Source of the DNA: an uncultured Acidobacteriota bacterium
GTDB lineage: Bacteria > Acidobacteriota > Thermoanaerobaculia > Multivoradales > UBA5704
NCBI GenBank assembly: GCA_963700145.1
Contig: OY969474.1
Span: forward strand, 3,584,001-3,648,000
Direction of reading: 5' to 3'
DNA length: 64,000 bases
A model generated the notes under the pieces. The model had not been told where the DNA came from. It did no database searches and saw nothing but the letters and a program-made list of their open reading frames with translations. Positions 19,282 to 26,769 of the stretch are shown here, piece by piece (the first letter of the stretch is position 1; every line of letters starts with the position of its first letter). A program made the translations under genes and the position numbers.

Positions 19282-20199
19282 TTACTGCTTGATGAGCGGC
19301 GAGAGGGCGCCGGTGTTGGCCCCGTTGCCGGAGAAGTAGTTGTCGGCGAACGAGCCGATCGTCCCGCCGGTGATCGTGAAGCCCGCCGTCGGGTTGTTGG
19401 TGATCGCGCTGCGCGACAGACGGACCGTCGAGGTGCCGGCCGTCGTGATCCCGCGCAGGTTGTGCGAGATCACCGAGTTGTCGACGTTCACCTGGCCCGG
19501 CGCGACGGTGCCAGCGCTGTCGATGCCCGCCACGGTGTTGCCGCTGACTGTCGTCGCCTCGAGGGTAAAGATCGCGCCCTCGCCGGCGAAGACGCCCGAG
19601 GCGTTGTTGGCGAGGATCGAGTCCGTGATCTGCACCTTGACGGTCGGCGTGCCGCTGATGGGGACGACGGCGACGCCGGCGGCGATGTTGTTGCCGATCG
19701 TCGACTCGCTGATGAAGACCTGGGTCGAGGTGCCGGTCGAGAGGTTGATGTCCACGCCGCGGCCCGGGCTGCCGCGGAAGCCGGTGATGTCGCAGTTCTC
19801 GATGTGCACCGCCTTGGCGCTCAGGATGCGCACGCCGCGCAGGCCGTTGCCCGCGCCGTTGATCGACAAGTTGCGGAGGACGACGGTGTCGGTGGAGGTG
19901 GCATTGATGATGACGCCGTTGATGAGGGAGGCGAGGATGCCGCCGAGCGACCCTTCACCGTTGATGGTGATCGACTTGGTGATCGTGACGCCGCCGAAGC
20001 CGCCCGGATCGAGCACGCTGATCTCGCCGCCGGGCGCGGTCTTGGAGATCGCGCCGGCGAAGGTCTTGCACGGCGCCGTGCGGCTGCACGGGTTCGCGTC
20101 GTTGCCGACGCCGGACACCCACGTCCGTGTCGCCTGCGCCTGAGCGCTCATGGCAACGACGAGGATAAGAATGTAAAGGACGGCGCAATGCTTACGCAT
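19282..20199 (-). CDS. Secreted right-handed parallel beta-helix protein (paralog 2)
   Basis: Highly similar to the flanking paralogs. Confidence 0.85.
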   Translation of the reverse strand: MRKHCAVLYILILVVAMSAQAQATRTWVSGVGNDANPCSRTAPCKTFAGAISKTAPGGEISVLDPGGFGGVTITKSITINGEGSLGGILASLINGVIINATSTDTVVLRNLSINGAGNGLRGVRILSAKAVHIENCDITGFRGSPGRGVDINLSTGTSTQVFISESTIGNNIAAGVAVVPISGTPTVKVQITDSILANNASGVFAGEGAIFTLEATTVSGNTVAGIDSAGTVAPGQVNVDNSVISHNLRGITTAGTSTVRLSRSAITNNPTAGFTITGGTIGSFADNYFSGNGANTGALSPLIKQ

Positions 20200-20311: not shown

Positions 20312-21229
20312 CTACTGCTTGATGAGCGGCGAGAGGGCGCCGGTGTTGGCCCCGTTGCCGGAGAAGTAGTTGTCGCCGAACGAGCCGATCGTCCCGCCGG
20401 TGATCGTGAAGCCCGCCGTCGGGTTGTTGGTGATCGCGCTGCGCGACAGCCGAACCGTCGAGGTGCCGGCCGTGGTGATGCCGCGGGTGTTGTGCGAGAT
20501 CACCGAGTTGTCGACGTTCACCTGGCCCGGCGCGATGGTGCCGGCGGCGTCGATGCCCGCGATCGTGTTGCCGCTGGCGGTCGCGTTCTCGAGCGTGAAG
20601 ATCCCGCCCTCGCCGGCGAAGACGCCCGAGGCGTTGTTGGCGAGGATCGAGTCGGTGATCTGCACCTTGGCGGTCGGCGTGCCGCTGGTGGGGACGACCG
20701 CGACGCCGGCGGCGATGTTGTTGGTGACCGTCGACTCGCTGATGAAGACCTGCGTCGAAGTGCCGGTGGCGAGGTTGACGTCCACGCCGCGGCCCGGGCT
20801 GCCGCGGAAGCCGCTGATGTCGCAGTTCTCGATGTGCACCGCCTTGGCGCTCAGGACGCGCACGCCGCGGAGGCCGTTGCCCACGCCGTTGATGGCGATG
20901 TGACGGAGGGTGATGGTGTCGGTGGCGGCGGCGTTGATGGTCACCCCGGTCACCAGCGAGGCGGTGATGCCGGCGAGCTGCCCTTCACCGTTGATGGTGA
21001 TGGACTTGGTGATGGTGACGGCGCCGAAGCTGCCCGGATCGAGGACGCTGATCTCGCCGCCGGCCGCGGTCTTGGAGATCGCGCCCGCGAAGGTCTTGCA
21101 GGGCGCGGTGCGGCTGCACGGGTTGACGTCGTCGCCGACGCCGGAGACCCAGGTCCGTGTCGCCTGCGCCTGAGCGCTCATGGCGACGACGAGAATGAAG
21201 ACATACAGGAACGCGCAACGGCTACGCAT
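20312..21229 (-). CDS. Secreted right-handed parallel beta-helix protein (paralog 3)
   Basis: Highly similar to paralogs 1 and 2; GGAGGAG RBS. Confidence 0.85.
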   Translation of the reverse strand: MRSRCAFLYVFILVVAMSAQAQATRTWVSGVGDDVNPCSRTAPCKTFAGAISKTAAGGEISVLDPGSFGAVTITKSITINGEGQLAGITASLVTGVTINAAATDTITLRHIAINGVGNGLRGVRVLSAKAVHIENCDISGFRGSPGRGVDVNLATGTSTQVFISESTVTNNIAAGVAVVPTSGTPTAKVQITDSILANNASGVFAGEGGIFTLENATASGNTIAGIDAAGTIAPGQVNVDNSVISHNTRGITTAGTSTVRLSRSAITNNPTAGFTITGGTIGSFGDNYFSGNGANTGALSPLIKQ

Positions 21230-21328: not shown

Positions 21329-22186
21329 CTAAACGAGCAGGTCCATTGCCGTCGCCGCGAAGAGCCAGACGGCGAGCATGCCGTTGGCGGTAAAAAAGGC
21401 GGCGTCGAGGCGCGAAAGATCGCCGGGGCGGACGATCCAGTGCTGGTAGGCGAGGAGCGCGAGGCAGCCGAGCCAGCCGAGCCAGTACCAGGCGCCGAGC
21501 CCCGGCGGGTAGACGCGCGGCAGGAGCGCGAGGAGCGCGAGCATCGCGGCATGAAAGAGGGCCGAGAGCCAGAGCGCCGGCACGGTGCCGAAGCGGGCGG
21601 GGATCGAGAAGAGCCCGGCGCGGCAGTCGAAGTCGAGGTCCTGCAAGGCGTAGAGGACGTCGAAGCCGGCGACCCAGAGAAGGACGGCGCCGGCGAGGAG
21701 GAACGGCGTCGGCGCGACGTCGCCGCGCACCGCGATCCAGGCCCCGAGCGGCGCGCCCGAGATCGCCAGGCCGAGCAGCAGGTGCGAGGCCCAGGTGAAG
21801 CGCTTGGTGTAGGAGTAGCCGCAGAGGATCAGCAGCGCCAGCGGCGCGAGCGCCAGCGCCAGCGGGTTGAGCTGCCACGCCGCCAGGACGAGGAGCGCGG
21901 CGCTGGCGAGGACGAAGAGCAGCACGAACCCCGGCGTCAGGAGGCCCGCGGGCAGCGCGCGCGACGCGGTGCGCGGGTTGGCGGCGTCGATCGTCCGGTC
22001 GGCGAGCCGGTTGAAGCCCATCGCCGTGCTCCGCGCCCCGACCATCGCGACGACGATCCAGAAGACCGTCCGCCAGGACGGCCACCCTTCGGCGGCGAGC
22101 AGCATCCCCAGGAAGGCGAACGGCAGCGCGAAGAGCGTGTGCTCGAACTTGATCATCTCGAGCACGATCCCGAGCCGCCCCTTCAC
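21329..22186 (-). CDS. mqnP: UbiA-family prenyltransferase of the futalosine menaquinone pathway
   Basis: MIKFEHTLFALPFA, AMGFNRLADRTIDAANPRT..R.LP, YSYTKRF, GFDVLYALQD; mqnE nearby. Confidence 0.8.
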   Translation of the reverse strand: MKGRLGIVLEMIKFEHTLFALPFAFLGMLLAAEGWPSWRTVFWIVVAMVGARSTAMGFNRLADRTIDAANPRTASRALPAGLLTPGFVLLFVLASAALLVLAAWQLNPLALALAPLALLILCGYSYTKRFTWASHLLLGLAISGAPLGAWIAVRGDVAPTPFLLAGAVLLWVAGFDVLYALQDLDFDCRAGLFSIPARFGTVPALWLSALFHAAMLALLALLPRVYPPGLGAWYWLGWLGCLALLAYQHWIVRPGDLSRLDAAFFTANGMLAVWLFAATAMDLLV

Positions 22187-23805
22187 CGCTCCTCCGGCTT
22201 CGGCTCGATCGGGCGCCCGCTCGCCTCCCACGCCCGCCATCCTCCGGTCAGGGCGCGCGCGTTGCGCCACCCCGCCCGCTGCAGCTCGCGCGTCACCCGG
22301 ACGCTCGTGCGCTCCTCAGGTCACGTGCAGTACGAGACGAGCCAGGTGTCCGGCGGCAGGCCCCACGCCCCGACCACCTCGACCGCGTTGTCCGGCGGCA
22401 CGCGGACGGCGCCGCGCGCCCGCTCGGAGCTCTCGCGGTAGGCGCCCTCGCTGCGCACGTCGAGGAGCACGACCGGCTCCCCGCGCCGCTCCAGCTCGGC
22501 GAGCTCCTCCAGCGTGATGCGCTCGGGGTCTCCCTTGTCCAAGGCCGCCGCCCCCTCGGGGACCGTCGCGACCGCAGGGGGCGGCACCGGCGGCGCCTCC
22601 GCGACGGCGCCGGCGGGCGCCGGCCGCAGGAAGACCTGCGAGCCGCCGTGGATGACGACCGACAGCAGCACGACGAGGGCCGTGATCTCGAAGAGCTCGC
22701 CGGCGCGCGGCAGCCCGGCGAAGACGGCGAGGAGCACGAGGAGGAGCGAGCTCAGGCCGCGCGGGCCGAACCAGGCGGCGAGCAGGCGACTGCGCCGGTC
22801 GAGGCTGCTGCCGGCGAGGACGGCGAGCAGCAGCGGGGCGCGCACGAAGAGGGCGACCGCGGCGAAGAGCAGCGCCGCCGGGCTCAGCGCCGTGAGGCCG
22901 CCCCAGATCGCCGAGCTGCCGAGGGCTACGAAGGTGAACAGCAGCCCCAGCTCCGCGGTCGCCTGCCCGTAGTCGAAGAAGCACTCGCAGAGCTCGACGT
23001 CGAGGGCGGCGATCGTCAGCCCGGCCGCGAAGGCGGCGAGGAAGCCGCTGCCGCCGACCGCCTCGGCCGCGGCGAAGGCGGTCAGCGCGACGCCGAAGCC
23101 GTAGAGCGACTCGTAGTCGCGCCGCACGCCGACGCGGCGGCGGATGACGTGGAGGGCGCCGATCGCCACCAGGCCCACGACCACCCCGCCGGCGATGCCG
23201 GGCACGAAGAGGCCGAGCGCCGCCCGCCCCATCTCGGCACCCCCCGGCGGCGCCTCGCCCGGCACCAGGAACCGCATGGCGACCAGCACCACCGGCAGCA
23301 GAACGGCGTCGTTCATGCCGCTCTCGAGGCGGAGGGCGTAGCGGGCCGGGGGCGGCAGGCTGGGGTTGCGCAGCAGGCCGCGCAGGAGCACCGGGTCGGT
23401 CGAGGCGAGGGCCGCGCCGACGATCGCGCTCTCGGCCACCCCCAGCCCGAGGATGCCCCAGGCGGCGAGCCCGATCGCGGCCGCGGTCAGCAGCGTCGCC
23501 GGGCCGAGGATCAGGGCGGCGAGCCGCAGGTGGTGCCGGAGGTCGGCGAAGGTGATGTCCACGGCGTCGGTGAAGAGCACGAGCACCAGCCCGAGCGTCG
23601 CGACGGCGCGGATCGTGGGCGAATCGACGGCGAGCGAGACGAGCCCCAGCCCGAACGGGCCGAGGGCGGTGCCGAGCGCGAGGAAGACCAGCGTCTGCGG
23701 CAGCCGCGTGCGGTCGGCGACCCCCGACAGCAGCGCCGCCGTCAGGACCACGGCGCCGACGATGCCGAAGATGCTGATCATCGGCTCGATGTCGTGCAGG
23801 CTCAA
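22183..23805 (-). CDS. NhaP/CPA1 cation:proton antiporter fused to a C-terminal rhodanese domain with in-frame UGA (putative selenocysteine, + strand 22321-22323)
   Basis: LASTDPV, ESGMND, WFGPRGLSS CPA1 motifs; LLDVRS..YCT-UGA-PEERTSVRVTRELQRAGWRNARALTGGWRAW rhodanese continues to a stop overlapping the mqnP GTG. Start TTG 23805 or ATG 23781. Confidence 0.85.
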
Positions 23806-24834: not shown

Positions 24835-25140
24835 TCAACGCTCGCCCCGGTCCTGGTCCAGCAGCTCGGCCGAGGTGATGCCTTCGAGGGCGGCCGGCAT
24901 CCGCTCGTAGATCTCCGGCCGGTTCGGGCCGCCCAGCCGGATGCTCCCCCGCCGGACGAGCTCGGCGAGGCCTGGATAGCGCTGCAGCAGGTCGAGCTGG
25001 TGCTCGTTCCGCGGCTCGGGCGGCCGCAGCTCGGCCACCACCTGGCTGCGATCGGTGACCAGGACGGTTTCCCCTTGCCGCACTTTGCGCACGTAGTCGC
25101 TCAGCCGTTTCTTCAGCTCGCGGATGTCGACACTGTGCAT
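24835..25140 (-). CDS. Phd/YefM-family antitoxin (no intact toxin downstream)
   Basis: VDIRELKKRLSDYVRKVRQGETVLVTDR..VAEL. Confidence 0.8.
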   Translation of the reverse strand: MHSVDIRELKKRLSDYVRKVRQGETVLVTDRSQVVAELRPPEPRNEHQLDLLQRYPGLAELVRRGSIRLGGPNRPEIYERMPAALEGITSAELLDQDRGER

Positions 25141-25310
25141 GGCCCGGAAATGTTCCGCGTGTAGCCATCTGGGCAACGGCCGGTAGCGCGGCCTTCGTCC
25201 GATTGCTTCCTGACTATCACCAAGCCGATTCGTGGTGAAGCTCGCGGAGCACGCACCCAGACCTTAGGCCACCAAGCCCCTCACCGGGCGGCACGGTGAC
25301 GGTCTCAACC

Positions 25311-26769
25311 GGGGTTGTCCCTCCCGCTGTTGAAAGAGCAATGAGGTGAAGGCGGCTCCTCGGCCCACCTGATCGAGAATCGGGTTGGTCGAATAACCGG
25401 CCCCGCCAGGGGGCCAAGGAGCCGTGATGAAGACGAGAGCAGAAAGGCGGGTGGTGTGGCAAGGGGGCCGTGCGGCGCGCATCAGCCACGGGCTACAAGC
25501 GCTGCTGCGGCCGATGGTCGAGGGCATCGAGGCCAGCCGCCAGGGGCTGCTGGAGCTGTTTCACGCCGCGGGCGTCGAGGCCCTGGGGCGGCAGCTCGCG
25601 GACGAGGTCGAGGCCGTCGTCGGTCCGAAGCGTCGGCGCAATCCGACCCGCGAGGCGTACCGCTGGGGCTCGACGGCGAGCGAGTTCGTGCTGGGTGGCC
25701 GCCAGGTGGCGCTGCCGCGACCGCGCGTCCGGCGACGCGACGGTGGCGAGATGAGCTTGCCTTCGGTGCGCGCCTTTCAGGACGAAGATCCCTTCACGGA
25801 GCGGGTGATCGAGCAGGCGCTGGTCGGCGTCTCGCAGCGCCGCTACGGTCGGAGCTTGGAGCCGCTCGCAGAGTCGGTGCCGGAGCGCGCGACGAGCAAG
25901 AGTGCGGTCCAGCGCCGGCTGGTGGCGGGGACGCGTCGTCTGCTGGGCGCGTGGCTGCGCCGAGACCTGTCGGACTTCCAGCCCCTGATCCTGATGATCG
26001 ACGGGCTGGAGGTGGCCGGCCACACCCTGGTGGTGGCACTCGGCATCGCGCGCGACGGGACCAAGCGGGTGCTCGGCCTGCGTGAAGGCGCGACGGAGAA
26101 CGCGGCGCTCTGTACCGGCCTGCTCCAGGAGCTGTTGGAGCGAGGCCTCGCGATGCCGCCGCGCTTCTTGGCGGTGCTCGACGGCGGCAAGGGGCTGCGC
26201 AAGGCCGTGCGCGCCGTCTTCGGGGACGCAACCCACGTCCAGCGCTGCCAGCTCCACAAGCGCCGCAACGTCCGCGACCACCTGCCCAAGCAGCTCCAAG
26301 CCCGGGTCGACCGCCTGATGGTCGAGGCCTACCAGAGCGCTCGCTTCGACCTCGCCAAGCGTCGCCTCGAGCAGCTTGCCCGCTGGCTCGAGCACGCAGG
26401 CCACGCGGGCGCCGCGGGCAGCCTGCGCGAGGGCCTCGACGAGACCCTCACCGCCTTGCGGCTGAAGCTGCCCGACGCTCTGCGCCGGTTGCTCGCCTCG
26501 ACCAACGCGATCGAGAACACGATCGGCTCGATCCGTACGACGACGCGCAACGTCAAGCGCTGGCGCGGCGGCGACATGGTGCTGCGCTGGGTCGCCCTGG
26601 CGCTGTGTGACGCGGAGGCTGGCTTCCGGCGTGTCAAGGGACATCGGCACCTCGGGGCTCTCGAGCTCGCGCTCGCGGCGATCGAGGAACCGACGAACAC
26701 CAAGGCCGTGGCATGATCAACCGAGCCGCTTTCCCTCTTTCGGCTTTCAACAGGGAACGGGGCATCCCC
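25311..26769 (+). mobile_element. IS256-family insertion sequence
   Basis: Imperfect ~47-bp terminal inverted repeats (GGGGTTGTCCCTCCCGCTGTTGAAAG.. / ..CTTTCAACAGGGAACGGGGCATCCCC) around a Mutator-type transposase. Confidence 0.88.
25424..26716 (+). CDS. IS256/Mutator-family DDE transposase
   Basis: ILMIDG, GTKRVLGL, VLDGGKGL, QRCQLHKRRN, STNAIE. Confidence 0.93.
   Translation: MMKTRAERRVVWQGGRAARISHGLQALLRPMVEGIEASRQGLLELFHAAGVEALGRQLADEVEAVVGPKRRRNPTREAYRWGSTASEFVLGGRQVALPRPRVRRRDGGEMSLPSVRAFQDEDPFTERVIEQALVGVSQRRYGRSLEPLAESVPERATSKSAVQRRLVAGTRRLLGAWLRRDLSDFQPLILMIDGLEVAGHTLVVALGIARDGTKRVLGLREGATENAALCTGLLQELLERGLAMPPRFLAVLDGGKGLRKAVRAVFGDATHVQRCQLHKRRNVRDHLPKQLQARVDRLMVEAYQSARFDLAKRRLEQLARWLEHAGHAGAAGSLREGLDETLTALRLKLPDALRRLLASTNAIENTIGSIRTTTRNVKRWRGGDMVLRWVALALCDAEAGFRRVKGHRHLGALELALAAIEEPTNTKAVA

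Follow-up and report, generated by a model that had tools for sequence, protein, structure and literature searches.

Positions 22186-23805 on the minus strand of the window (the whole stretch of 64,000 nucleotides of Acidobacteriota DNA that was analysed) encode, in our view with high confidence, a single membrane selenoprotein of 540 residues, made up of a cation/proton antiporter, a flexible linker and a rhodanese domain carrying selenocysteine (Sec). The features of the locus are collected in Table 1. The first-pass annotation of this DNA had described an antiporter frame ending in ..VSYCT* that continues past the UGA until a GTGA overlap with the following gene, and this was confirmed from the sequence: the 494 codons before the UGA are followed in the same frame by 45 further codons (PEERTSVRVTRELQRAGWRNARALTGGWRAWEASGRPIEPKPEER) and then by a second TGA (22185-22183), which overlaps the GTG start codon of the next gene (22186-22184). 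For the start of the protein an ATG at 23781 is an alternative; the position of the TTG used here is occupied by ATG in the closest relative (L022).

Table 1. Features of the selenoprotein locus and its downstream neighbour, in window positions.
Feature	Position	Strand	Remarks
Full selenoprotein CDS	22186..23805	-	540 codons; TTG start at 23805; true stop TGA at 22183-22185
ORF up to the UGA	22321..23805	-	494 codons, ending in ...VSYCT, then TGA 22323-22321
NhaP/CPA1-type antiporter domain	22627..23805	-	aa 1-393; 13 transmembrane helices
Cys273-Glu-Cys275 (ELCECF)	22981..22989	-	second Cys pair; loop joining helices 9 and 10, predicted to be cytoplasmic
Pro/Ala-rich linker	22525..22626	-	aa 394-427; pLDDT below 50 at residues 412-421
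C-terminal rhodanese domain, CxU type	22198..22524	-	aa 428-536
Cys493 codon TGC	22327..22329	-	two residues before Sec; invariant in alignment A2
In-frame UGA, very probably Sec495	22321..22323	-	assigned by comparative criteria and Sec machinery
SECIS-like hairpin	22287..22307	-	8-position helix CGAGCGUC/GACGCGCG around the loop CGGGU
UbiA-family prenyltransferase (MqnP-like)	21329..22186	-	GTG start overlaps the selenoprotein stop (GTGA)

The UGA is very probably read as selenocysteine, as judged by its conservation among relatives. One in-frame TGA together with a full-length match was found in 13 of 61 genomes (the genome itself and 60 relatives), at identities down to 52%. Every one of the 14 orthologue loci that extend over this column has the TGA there, and conservation of the protein continues beyond the UGA. 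In a larger set of 80 named loci, the column is covered by 52, with TGA in 47 of them and TGT or TGC in the other five. Cys is also found there in the paralogues L056 and L063-L066. Among fusion proteins that read through this position, 10 of 11 have Cys in the Sec column and the remaining one has Thr. The homologues with Cys anticipated by the first-pass annotation do exist, and its central claim, a Sec codon in the active-site loop of a CPA1 antiporter-rhodanese fusion, is upheld. The codon is also covered by contigs of four soil metagenome runs from four studies, with no listed difference on it, the comparison being made at the level of contigs only. No RNA runs appeared among the sequencing runs listed as containing the stretch.

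The machinery for Sec insertion is present in the genome. A search for selA, selB, selC and selD had been suggested, and all four were found above curated cut-offs: selA with 442.9 bits, selB with 361.8 bits, selD with 339.5 bits and carrying an in-frame TGA of its own, and a tRNA-Sec with 70.3 bits and the anticodon TCA. In the relatives, selA was detected in the five Sec-form genomes tested (in one of them in fragments), and was missing from two of five Cys-form genomes.

Downstream of the UGA, the hairpin at 22287-22307 behaves as its SECIS element, as judged from sequence comparison. The hairpin GCGUC-CGGGU-GACGC of the first-pass annotation was found at 22304-22290, starting 16 nt past the UGA, and this 5-bp stem with its loop is the apical part of a larger conserved SECIS-like element, whose helix starts 13 nt and whose loop starts 21 nt after the UGA, the whole spanning 13 to 33 nt. 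In the genus of the window the helix includes one A.G mismatch. The energy of the hairpin itself is unremarkable, with -11.9 kcal/mol for a 29-nt piece (z -0.84; 39 of 200 shuffles fold as well) and a folding z of +0.36 for an 86-nt piece. The DNA of the window is GC-rich, and its own hairpin is no stronger than chance there. The hairpin was judged to be above chance because of its conservation and covariation across relatives, not because of its own energy. Over 69 distinct sequences, 82.2% of the cells of the helix are paired in register versus 21-48% when the helix is slid, and six of the eight helix pairs change on both sides, a number reached by none of 500 shuffles. In register, the five apical base pairs are all formed in 44 of 47 TGA forms versus none of five Cys forms. 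In the genus of the window, a C-G pair has become U-A through the combined changes Ala to Val and Ala to Thr. Fourfold-degenerate sites are all but fixed within the stem, where one Ala codon is GCC in 63 of 64 cases, the Val codon is GTG in 46 of 47 and a second Ala codon is GCG in 56 of 58, and such sites are free to vary in the loop and outside the stem; the encoded SARVA motif is constant in UGA forms and variable in Cys forms. The locus would offer a clean natural example of an amino-acid sequence shaped by the SECIS element embedded in it. The hairpin is shared with stand-alone CxU relatives in sister genomes. When 22150-22400 was scanned against Rfam with an E limit of 10, only two matches, both put down to chance, were returned and none was to a SECIS family, which is as expected for bacterial SECIS elements.

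Public annotation ends the protein at the UGA. Twenty-one of the 22 matches in the protein search are antiporter calls that cover the query region only before the UGA, including the 495-aa call of the window itself and an NCBI record that is titled "cation:proton antiporter" and nothing more, and 34 of the best 150 representatives stop at the residue preceding the UGA. The truncation by standard pipelines expected in the first-pass annotation was confirmed, and as a consequence the rhodanese domain and the selenium site are invisible in annotation.

Two readings of the locus do without selenium. A true stop or a sequencing error, leaving a truncated antiporter or pseudogene with a relic frame downstream, would agree with the behaviour of the gene callers and with the ordinary local energy of the hairpin, but it is very improbable when faced with a TGA column kept in every orthologue and in 47 of the 52 named fusions over several phyla, with a conserved downstream protein, a covarying hairpin and Cys partners, and with independent metagenome contigs that cover the codon. 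Near-cognate decoding of the UGA, with Cys or Trp inserted as a standard amino acid, is hardly to be expected either, since the genome has the full selABCD set, a structured element lies in register with the UGA in UGA forms only, and selA was never seen to be missing from a genome with a Sec form.

The antiporter part of the protein matches PF00999 (E 5.4e-40, 137.8 bits against a Pfam cut-off of 26.2), and the transport-site motifs T136-D137, E161, N165-D166 and R349 line up with PaNhaP in a residue alignment. The AlphaFold2 model (pLDDT 90.9, pTM 0.87) was matched by Foldseek to PaNhaP (4cz8_B) with a TM of 0.74, normalised to the target, and also to the MjNhaP1 fold (4czb). The 13-helix fold is the same, and the TD, E..ND and GPRG motifs align; by contrast, the solved PaNhaP and MjNhaP1 proteins share around 20% identity with the window protein and are without the rhodanese domain, the Sec and the Cys-x-Cys at the loop of helices 9-10. 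Two NCBIfam equivalog models gave scores under their cut-offs, NF003716 (K+/H+ antiporter) with 128.6 versus 355 bits and TIGR00831 (Na+/H+) with 56.5 versus 279.6 bits. The predicted topology places 18 Lys and Arg residues inside versus 3 outside, and from this charge distribution and the helix count the rhodanese domain is predicted to be cytoplasmic. The Cys273-x-Cys275 pair is co-conserved with the rhodanese fusion in the sequences compared, being kept in 24 of 25 Sec-truncated fusions and 6 of 7 Cys fusions, versus 12 of the 45 CPA1 homologues that span the loop and seem to be unfused, with the three groups sorted by simple tail patterns.

The rhodanese fold that the first-pass annotation saw across the UGA corresponds to a single Pfam domain (PF00581, aa 432-528, 31.6 bits against a cut-off of 22.2) that spans residue 495. 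The NCBIfam model NF041203 (rhodanese_LYCAU) aligns to aa 422-536 over its profile positions 15-126 of 126, with 83.9 bits and an E of 7.2e-24, below its curated cut-off of 115. The order of the active-site loop is Cys493-Thr-Sec495-Pro-Glu-Glu; its Cys-x-Sec motif reads Y-C-T-U in the window and F/Y-C-A-U in the orthologues, and the Glu at +3 from Sec is invariant in 69 of 69 sequences. In classical rhodaneses, the catalytic Cys opens a loop of six residues, most of them basic. Judged by its distance from the conserved helix and GG landmarks, Sec495 would occupy the canonical position of this Cys. In an ungapped alignment with 6mxv_A, the Cys of the CGGGFRS loop falls on residue 495; HMMER aligned the catalytic Cys of YnjE to Cys493, not to Sec495. 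A reading of the loop as the CX5R motif of arsenate reductases or Cdc25, possible in the window itself as C493-X5-R499, was rejected because the orthologues have Ala in the place of R499.

Selenoproteins with a CxU rhodanese domain were already listed, in the reviews PMC13188914 and PMC9312934 (NCBIfam NF041203). The rhodanese-like selenoprotein "form 3" (CxU) is this NF041203 type, which PMC9312934 names "COG0607 form 2". The fusion of such a domain to a 13-helix NhaP-type antiporter was not found in the literature searched, and supplementary selenoproteome tables may list it. What was announced as a hidden selenoprotein is, then, unlisted as an antiporter fusion and previously listed as a domain type. 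The window protein and the NF041203 family agree in their domain, in having Cys-x-Sec in the active-site loop and in where the SECIS element lies, but the family consists of small single-domain proteins of around 126 residues and the window protein is a 540-residue fusion with PF00999. Likewise, the stand-alone CxU relatives retrieved have signal peptides, whereas the domain in the window is a predicted cytoplasmic tail of the antiporter. CxU-domain relatives include secreted stand-alone proteins, and the domain is also found on VTT/DedA membrane proteins, so that a catalytic domain fits as well as a sensor. Several transporter-linked selenoproteins have been predicted (YeeE/YedE, SO_0444 Cu/Zn efflux, a cation-transporting ATPase and SaoP, in a table of PMC13188914), all by comparative genomics only; as in the window protein, Sec is within or attached to a membrane transporter, but they belong to other transporter families, none of them CPA antiporters, and neither "antiporter" nor "exchanger" occurs in that review. 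The fusion would bring a CPA-type secondary transporter into this short list.

The gene downstream passes the cut-off of TIGR01475, a generic UbiA-like model, with 303 bits, and scores below the cut-offs of the MqnP models, so its earlier identification as mqnP was not sustained. Its adjacency to the fusion was found only in the three closest genomes (L021-L023). The overlap is restricted to the window and to two genomes that are at least 93% identical; an orthologue of the same genus at 83% lacks it, as do all other genera. When the flanking ORFs of 13 orthologue loci and 52 named loci were clustered, conserved neighbours appeared only among close kin (genus g1 and the Gemmatimonadales); in the same loci no partner gene conserved across phyla and no metal-resistance genes conserved next to the fusion were found. 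The proposed functional coupling to menaquinone prenylation, and any function based on the operon, were dropped because neighbours are conserved within close kin only, and from gene order the UbiA/MqnP-like gene is to be taken as a neighbour, not as a shown part of the selenoprotein system.

For the function of the fusion, it is possible, if short of probable, that a cytoplasmic Cys-x-Sec redox switch gates cation/proton exchange, in line with the redox or (seleno)persulfide switch that the first-pass annotation put forward as an inference. A reversible selenenylsulfide could form between Sec495 and Cys493, or the two could bear a sulfane or selenium adduct; their state would report oxidants, electrophiles or sulfane sulfur and would change how the rhodanese domain acts on the antiporter at its cytoplasmic face, perhaps via the co-conserved Cys273-x-Cys275 pair. 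The outcome would be a gated Na+(K+)/H+ exchange, functionally comparable to ligand-gated KefC. The glutathione-gated K+/H+ exchanger KefC (8bxg, 8by2) is a CPA antiporter whose C-terminal sensor lies in the cytoplasm and answers thiol chemistry. The resemblance is no more than an analogy of function: KefC is a CPA2 protein with a KTN/RCK nucleotide-binding domain, and no KTN/RCK domain was found in the window protein by Pfam and NCBIfam scans. More doubtful is the specific form of this proposal, a selenium-based gate in which Sec495/Cys493 would swap redox state with Cys273-x-Cys275 and in which exchange, and with it cytoplasmic pH, would answer to oxidants, electrophiles and sulfane sulfur. 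To our knowledge, selenium-based redox gating has not been described for CPA antiporters.

A different function for a real Sec, which we consider rather unlikely, is that the rhodanese domain works as a membrane-tethered enzyme (a sulfur or selenium transferase, or a chalcogen or metalloid reductase), with the antiporter as its anchor or local proton source. The probable catalytic position of Sec, the occurrence of the CxU/CxC domain alone with signal peptides and on VTT/DedA proteins, and the mostly catalytic nature of known selenoproteins (in the available text of PMC13188914 and PMC9312934) speak for such an enzyme; its loop, however, is acidic, with Glu at +3 throughout, which sets it apart from the anion-binding loops of sulfurtransferases, and no partner gene conserved across phyla was found. 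In CPA antiporters, a cytoplasmic C-terminal domain usually has a regulatory role, which argues against a tethered enzyme; the Foldseek matches of the model to KefC, SOS1 and SLC9C1 can be compared. It is still less probable that the domain is a soft-metal sensor or site (Cys493, Sec495 and Glu498, perhaps with Cys273 and Cys275) controlling cation/proton exchange, a function that would suit the two conserved Cys-x-Cys/Sec pairs, predicted to lie on one and the same membrane side, the invariant acidic residue of the loop and the ties of several predicted transporter selenoproteins to metals (in the available text of PMC13188914), but that finds neither metal-resistance genes conserved alongside the fusion nor a metal-binding family matched in Pfam or NCBIfam.

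If the redox gate were real, selenium-based control of an antiporter would operate in soil bacteria from seven or more phyla. By record titles, Sec forms belong to Acidobacteriota, Gemmatimonadota, Chloroflexota, Planctomycetota, Myxococcota, Actinomycetota and Neomarinimicrobiota. Strain-designated carriers, again by record titles, are Dictyobacter aurantiacus S27 and Ktedonospora formicarum SOSP1-1, in which bench tests of selenium and gating would be possible if cultures are available.

The fusion gene runs from a TTG start to an in-frame UGA, and the same frame continues past it for 45 further codons, PEERTSVRVTRELQRAGWRNARALTGGWRAWEASGRPIEPKPEER, to a second TGA. One rhodanese domain extends over the UGA behind an exchanger domain; the antiporter-rhodanese fusion described in the first-pass annotation was recovered by Pfam, and all statements of that annotation on the sequence (frame, UGA, rhodanese continuation, GTGA overlap and hairpin) were found to be correct. 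The protein used for searches and folding carried one extra C-terminal residue, as the real stop was translated too.

Features of the fusion locus, its surroundings and related loci
Feature	Position	Strand	Details
Fusion gene, first ORF	23805-22321	-	TTG start at 23805; TGA at 22323-22321; C-terminus ...LVSYCT
Stop closing the read-through	22185-22183	-	TGA; shares GTGA with the GTG start of the next gene
Na+/H+ exchanger domain	aa 22-389		Pfam, E 5.4e-40
Rhodanese domain, single	aa 432-528		Pfam; across residue 495 (UGA)
SECIS-like hairpin	22304-22290	-	GCGUC-CGGGU-GACGC; 16 nt past the UGA
Tandem genes	19282-20199; 20312-21229	-	305-aa products, 87% identical
Small ORF	24835-25176	-	Phd/YefM antitoxin-like N-terminus; 29.1 bits, just below the Pfam cut-off of 29.8
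Transposase ORF	25424-26716	+	Mutator family (IS256-like); PF00872, E 4.5e-33
tRNA-Sec	window's genome		70.3 bits (gathering score 47)
selA	window's genome		442.9 bits, above curated cut-off
selB	window's genome		361.8 bits, above curated cut-off
selD (locus L018)	G000:C1:3788741-3789661		339.5 bits; one in-frame TGA
selA, Acidimicrobiia MAG	G069:C1:2396666-2397962		several neighbouring frame-shifted pieces
VTT/DedA-rhodanese L061	470-1231	-	TGA
VTT/DedA-rhodanese L063	338-1177	-	Cys

Conservation of the UGA was studied in 61 genomes (the window's own and 60 relatives). In 13 of them the query matched over its full length, with a single in-frame TGA and identities of 52-100%, and in one additional genome the gene was split over two contigs, one of which ends before the UGA column. 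All genomes with an orthologue belong to the window's family; with this query none was detected in G002 (91% complete), one of the four other same-genus genomes. The codon was TGA in all 14 orthologue loci covering the column, and the protein beyond it is kept, e.g., ...FCA-U-x-x-EATSARVALELRRAGWPRAVALTGGW.AW. Among 20 other rhodanese regions, a non-random sample of 19 hand-picked from this search plus L050, TGA occupied the column in 12 and Cys codons in five (motifs such as YCTCPNE), the remaining three being a canonical rhodanese with a shifted alignment, a region with Ala and one without coverage of the column.

An exhaustive search of representatives gave 6590 matches at E <= 0.001. Within the best 150, 34 terminate at the residue preceding the UGA, bearing out the earlier remark that pipelines shorten the gene, and 11 run through the column, ten with Cys and one with Thr. 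A scan of named genomes produced 80 loci, in 52 of which the rhodanese part reaches across the column (47 TGA, five TGT/TGC), so that homologues with either codon, whose search had been proposed, do exist; no rhodanese was matched in the remaining 28, some of which are interrupted by contig ends. Judging from record titles, Sec forms occur in Acidobacteriota (Thermoanaerobaculia, Pyrinomonadaceae, Blastocatellales, Bryobacterales, Holophagales), Gemmatimonadales, Chloroflexota (including Dictyobacter aurantiacus S27 and Ktedonospora formicarum SOSP1-1), Gemmataceae, Myxococcota (Kofleriaceae and others), Acidimicrobiia, Rubrobacteraceae and one Neomarinimicrobiota MAG. Soil-metagenome contigs from four runs of four studies span 22321-22323, and none of the 40 differences listed for them (73 further ones exist) falls there.

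The selenocysteine machinery, another check proposed, was detected in the window's genome (5.46 Mb, single contig), where all four components exceed curated cut-offs and ARAGORN calls a tRNA-SeC with anticodon TCA. Its selD is probably a selenoprotein in its own right. selA was present in all five Sec-form fusion genomes tested, in one as adjacent fragments only, and in three of five Cys-form genomes. The split selA of a Sec-form Acidimicrobiia MAG reflects either decay of the gene or a fault in the assembly.

The SECIS-like hairpin announced in the first-pass annotation is unremarkable in its own energy: a fold of -11.9 kcal/mol was computed for the 29-nt piece (z -0.84; 39 of 200 shuffles equal it, in GC-rich DNA), an 86-nt piece around it is no stronger than chance (z +0.36), and no Rfam family matched the region. 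This weak local energy is due to an A.G mismatch at one helix position in the window's genus, where one C-G pair has also become U-A through two substitutions (Ala to Val and Ala to Thr). Comparison nevertheless upheld the hairpin, as all UGA forms carry it in identical register, an eight-position helix from 13 nt after the UGA enclosing five loop nucleotides, C-G-K-G-Y. Pairing was scored in alignment A4 (72 sequences, 69 distinct): paired cells make up 82.2%, and shifting the partner by 1-3 columns lowers this to 21-48%; both sides change at six of eight pairs, and none of 500 shuffles attains the observed values for four of five measures. The smaller alignment A1 gave the same picture. The five apical pairs are complete in 44 of the 47 named UGA forms (four of five in the other three) and in none of the five Cys forms. 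The helix is embedded in T-S-A-R-V-A codons, and its fourfold sites are frozen (Ser AGC 67/67, Ala GCC 63/64, Val GTG 46/47, second Ala GCG 56/58), whereas codons outside the stem vary: loop Arg (CGT 39, CGG 29), Thr (ACG 33, ACC 18, ACA 14) and Leu (CTG 21, CTC 18, CTT 15, CTA 8). Cys-form peptides differ at these codons (SVHVA, SGRVT, SMKVA), and therefore RNA, not protein, appears to hold the sequence. Codon conservation, Cys partners, machinery and the covarying hairpin together support the hidden selenoprotein first suggested, the UGA very probably being read as selenocysteine by means of a SECIS of its own.

An AlphaFold2 model of the fusion (91 aligned sequences; mean pLDDT 90.9, pTM 0.87) has 13 membrane helices, which a disordered linker (412-421) connects to a rhodanese fold with strand 488-492, Cys493-Thr-Sec495 and a helix from 496. 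Structurally it most resembles PaNhaP and MjNhaP1 (target-normalised TM 0.72-0.76). The PaNhaP motifs TD, E..ND and GPRG align with T136-D137, E161, N165-D166 and R349, and therefore the transporter looks intact; scores for the NCBIfam named K+/H+ and Na+/H+ antiporter models are far below cut-offs. Helix number and the Lys/Arg count of predicted loops (18 inner, 3 outer) predict that the rhodanese domain is cytoplasmic. NhaP proteins carry their C-terminus on the cytoplasmic side.

Regarding function, a Cys-x-Sec redox switch in the rhodanese tail might gate the antiporter, a reading that we hold tentatively. Helices 9 and 10 are joined by a loop, predicted to lie inside, that holds a second pair, Cys273-x-Cys275. 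Of the sequences covering this loop, 24 of 25 Sec-truncated fusions and 6 of 7 Cys fusions have the pair, as against 12 of 45 homologues that seem to be unfused; these groups were drawn by simple tail patterns and contain related, non-independent sequences. A catalytic role of the Sec domain is only slightly less likely than gating. In an ungapped alignment with rhodanese 6mxv_A, the Cys of its CGGGFRS loop falls on residue 495 with identical spacing to the Gly and GG landmarks, which would put Sec495 at the canonical catalytic position and Cys493 two residues before; this placement is not beyond doubt, since HMMER aligns Cys493 instead with YnjE. Glu follows at Sec +3 in 69 of 69 sequences. 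Metal sensing by the domain seems improbable.

The Sec domain type is already known. The NCBIfam model NF041203 ('rhodanese_LYCAU, rhodanese-related (seleno)protein') covers aa 422-536 with 83.9 bits, without reaching its cut-off of 115; the CxU rhodanese selenoprotein is listed in PMC13188914 and, as 'COG0607 form 2, CxU', in PMC9312934, and a UxU form of rhodanese-related sulfurtransferase was reported (PMC1976440). Full-text search returned nothing pairing rhodanese with NhaP, the words 'antiporter' and 'exchanger' are absent from PMC13188914, and, by titles and abstract openings, none of the works found on rhodanese, antiporter and selenocysteine appears to treat this fusion. The fusion to a CPA1 antiporter is an unannotated variant and, within the literature searched, an undescribed one. 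Loci L061 and L063 show the same CxU/CxC rhodanese domain in a second membrane-protein setting, fused C-terminally to proteins of the VTT/DedA family. Stand-alone CxU rhodanese selenoprotein genes with the same SECIS hairpin and hydrophobic, signal-peptide-like N-termini occur in sister genomes of the window's family (L050-L060); the fusion query found none in the window's own genome.

The proposed coupling to mqnP was not supported. The next gene downstream scores above the cut-off of TIGR01475, a generic UbiA-like model, and below those of the MqnP models, and the adjacency is confined to the window and two genomes with at least 93% identity, being absent in the same-genus orthologue (83%) and in other genera. 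No neighbour gene conserved across phyla was found among the fusion loci compared. Both tandem genes encode proteins with signal-peptide-like N-termini and right-handed beta-helix/NosD-like repeats, neither matching an NCBIfam family. On the other side, a small antitoxin-like ORF is present, and about 1.6 kb separate the selenoprotein gene from the transposase ORF upstream of it.
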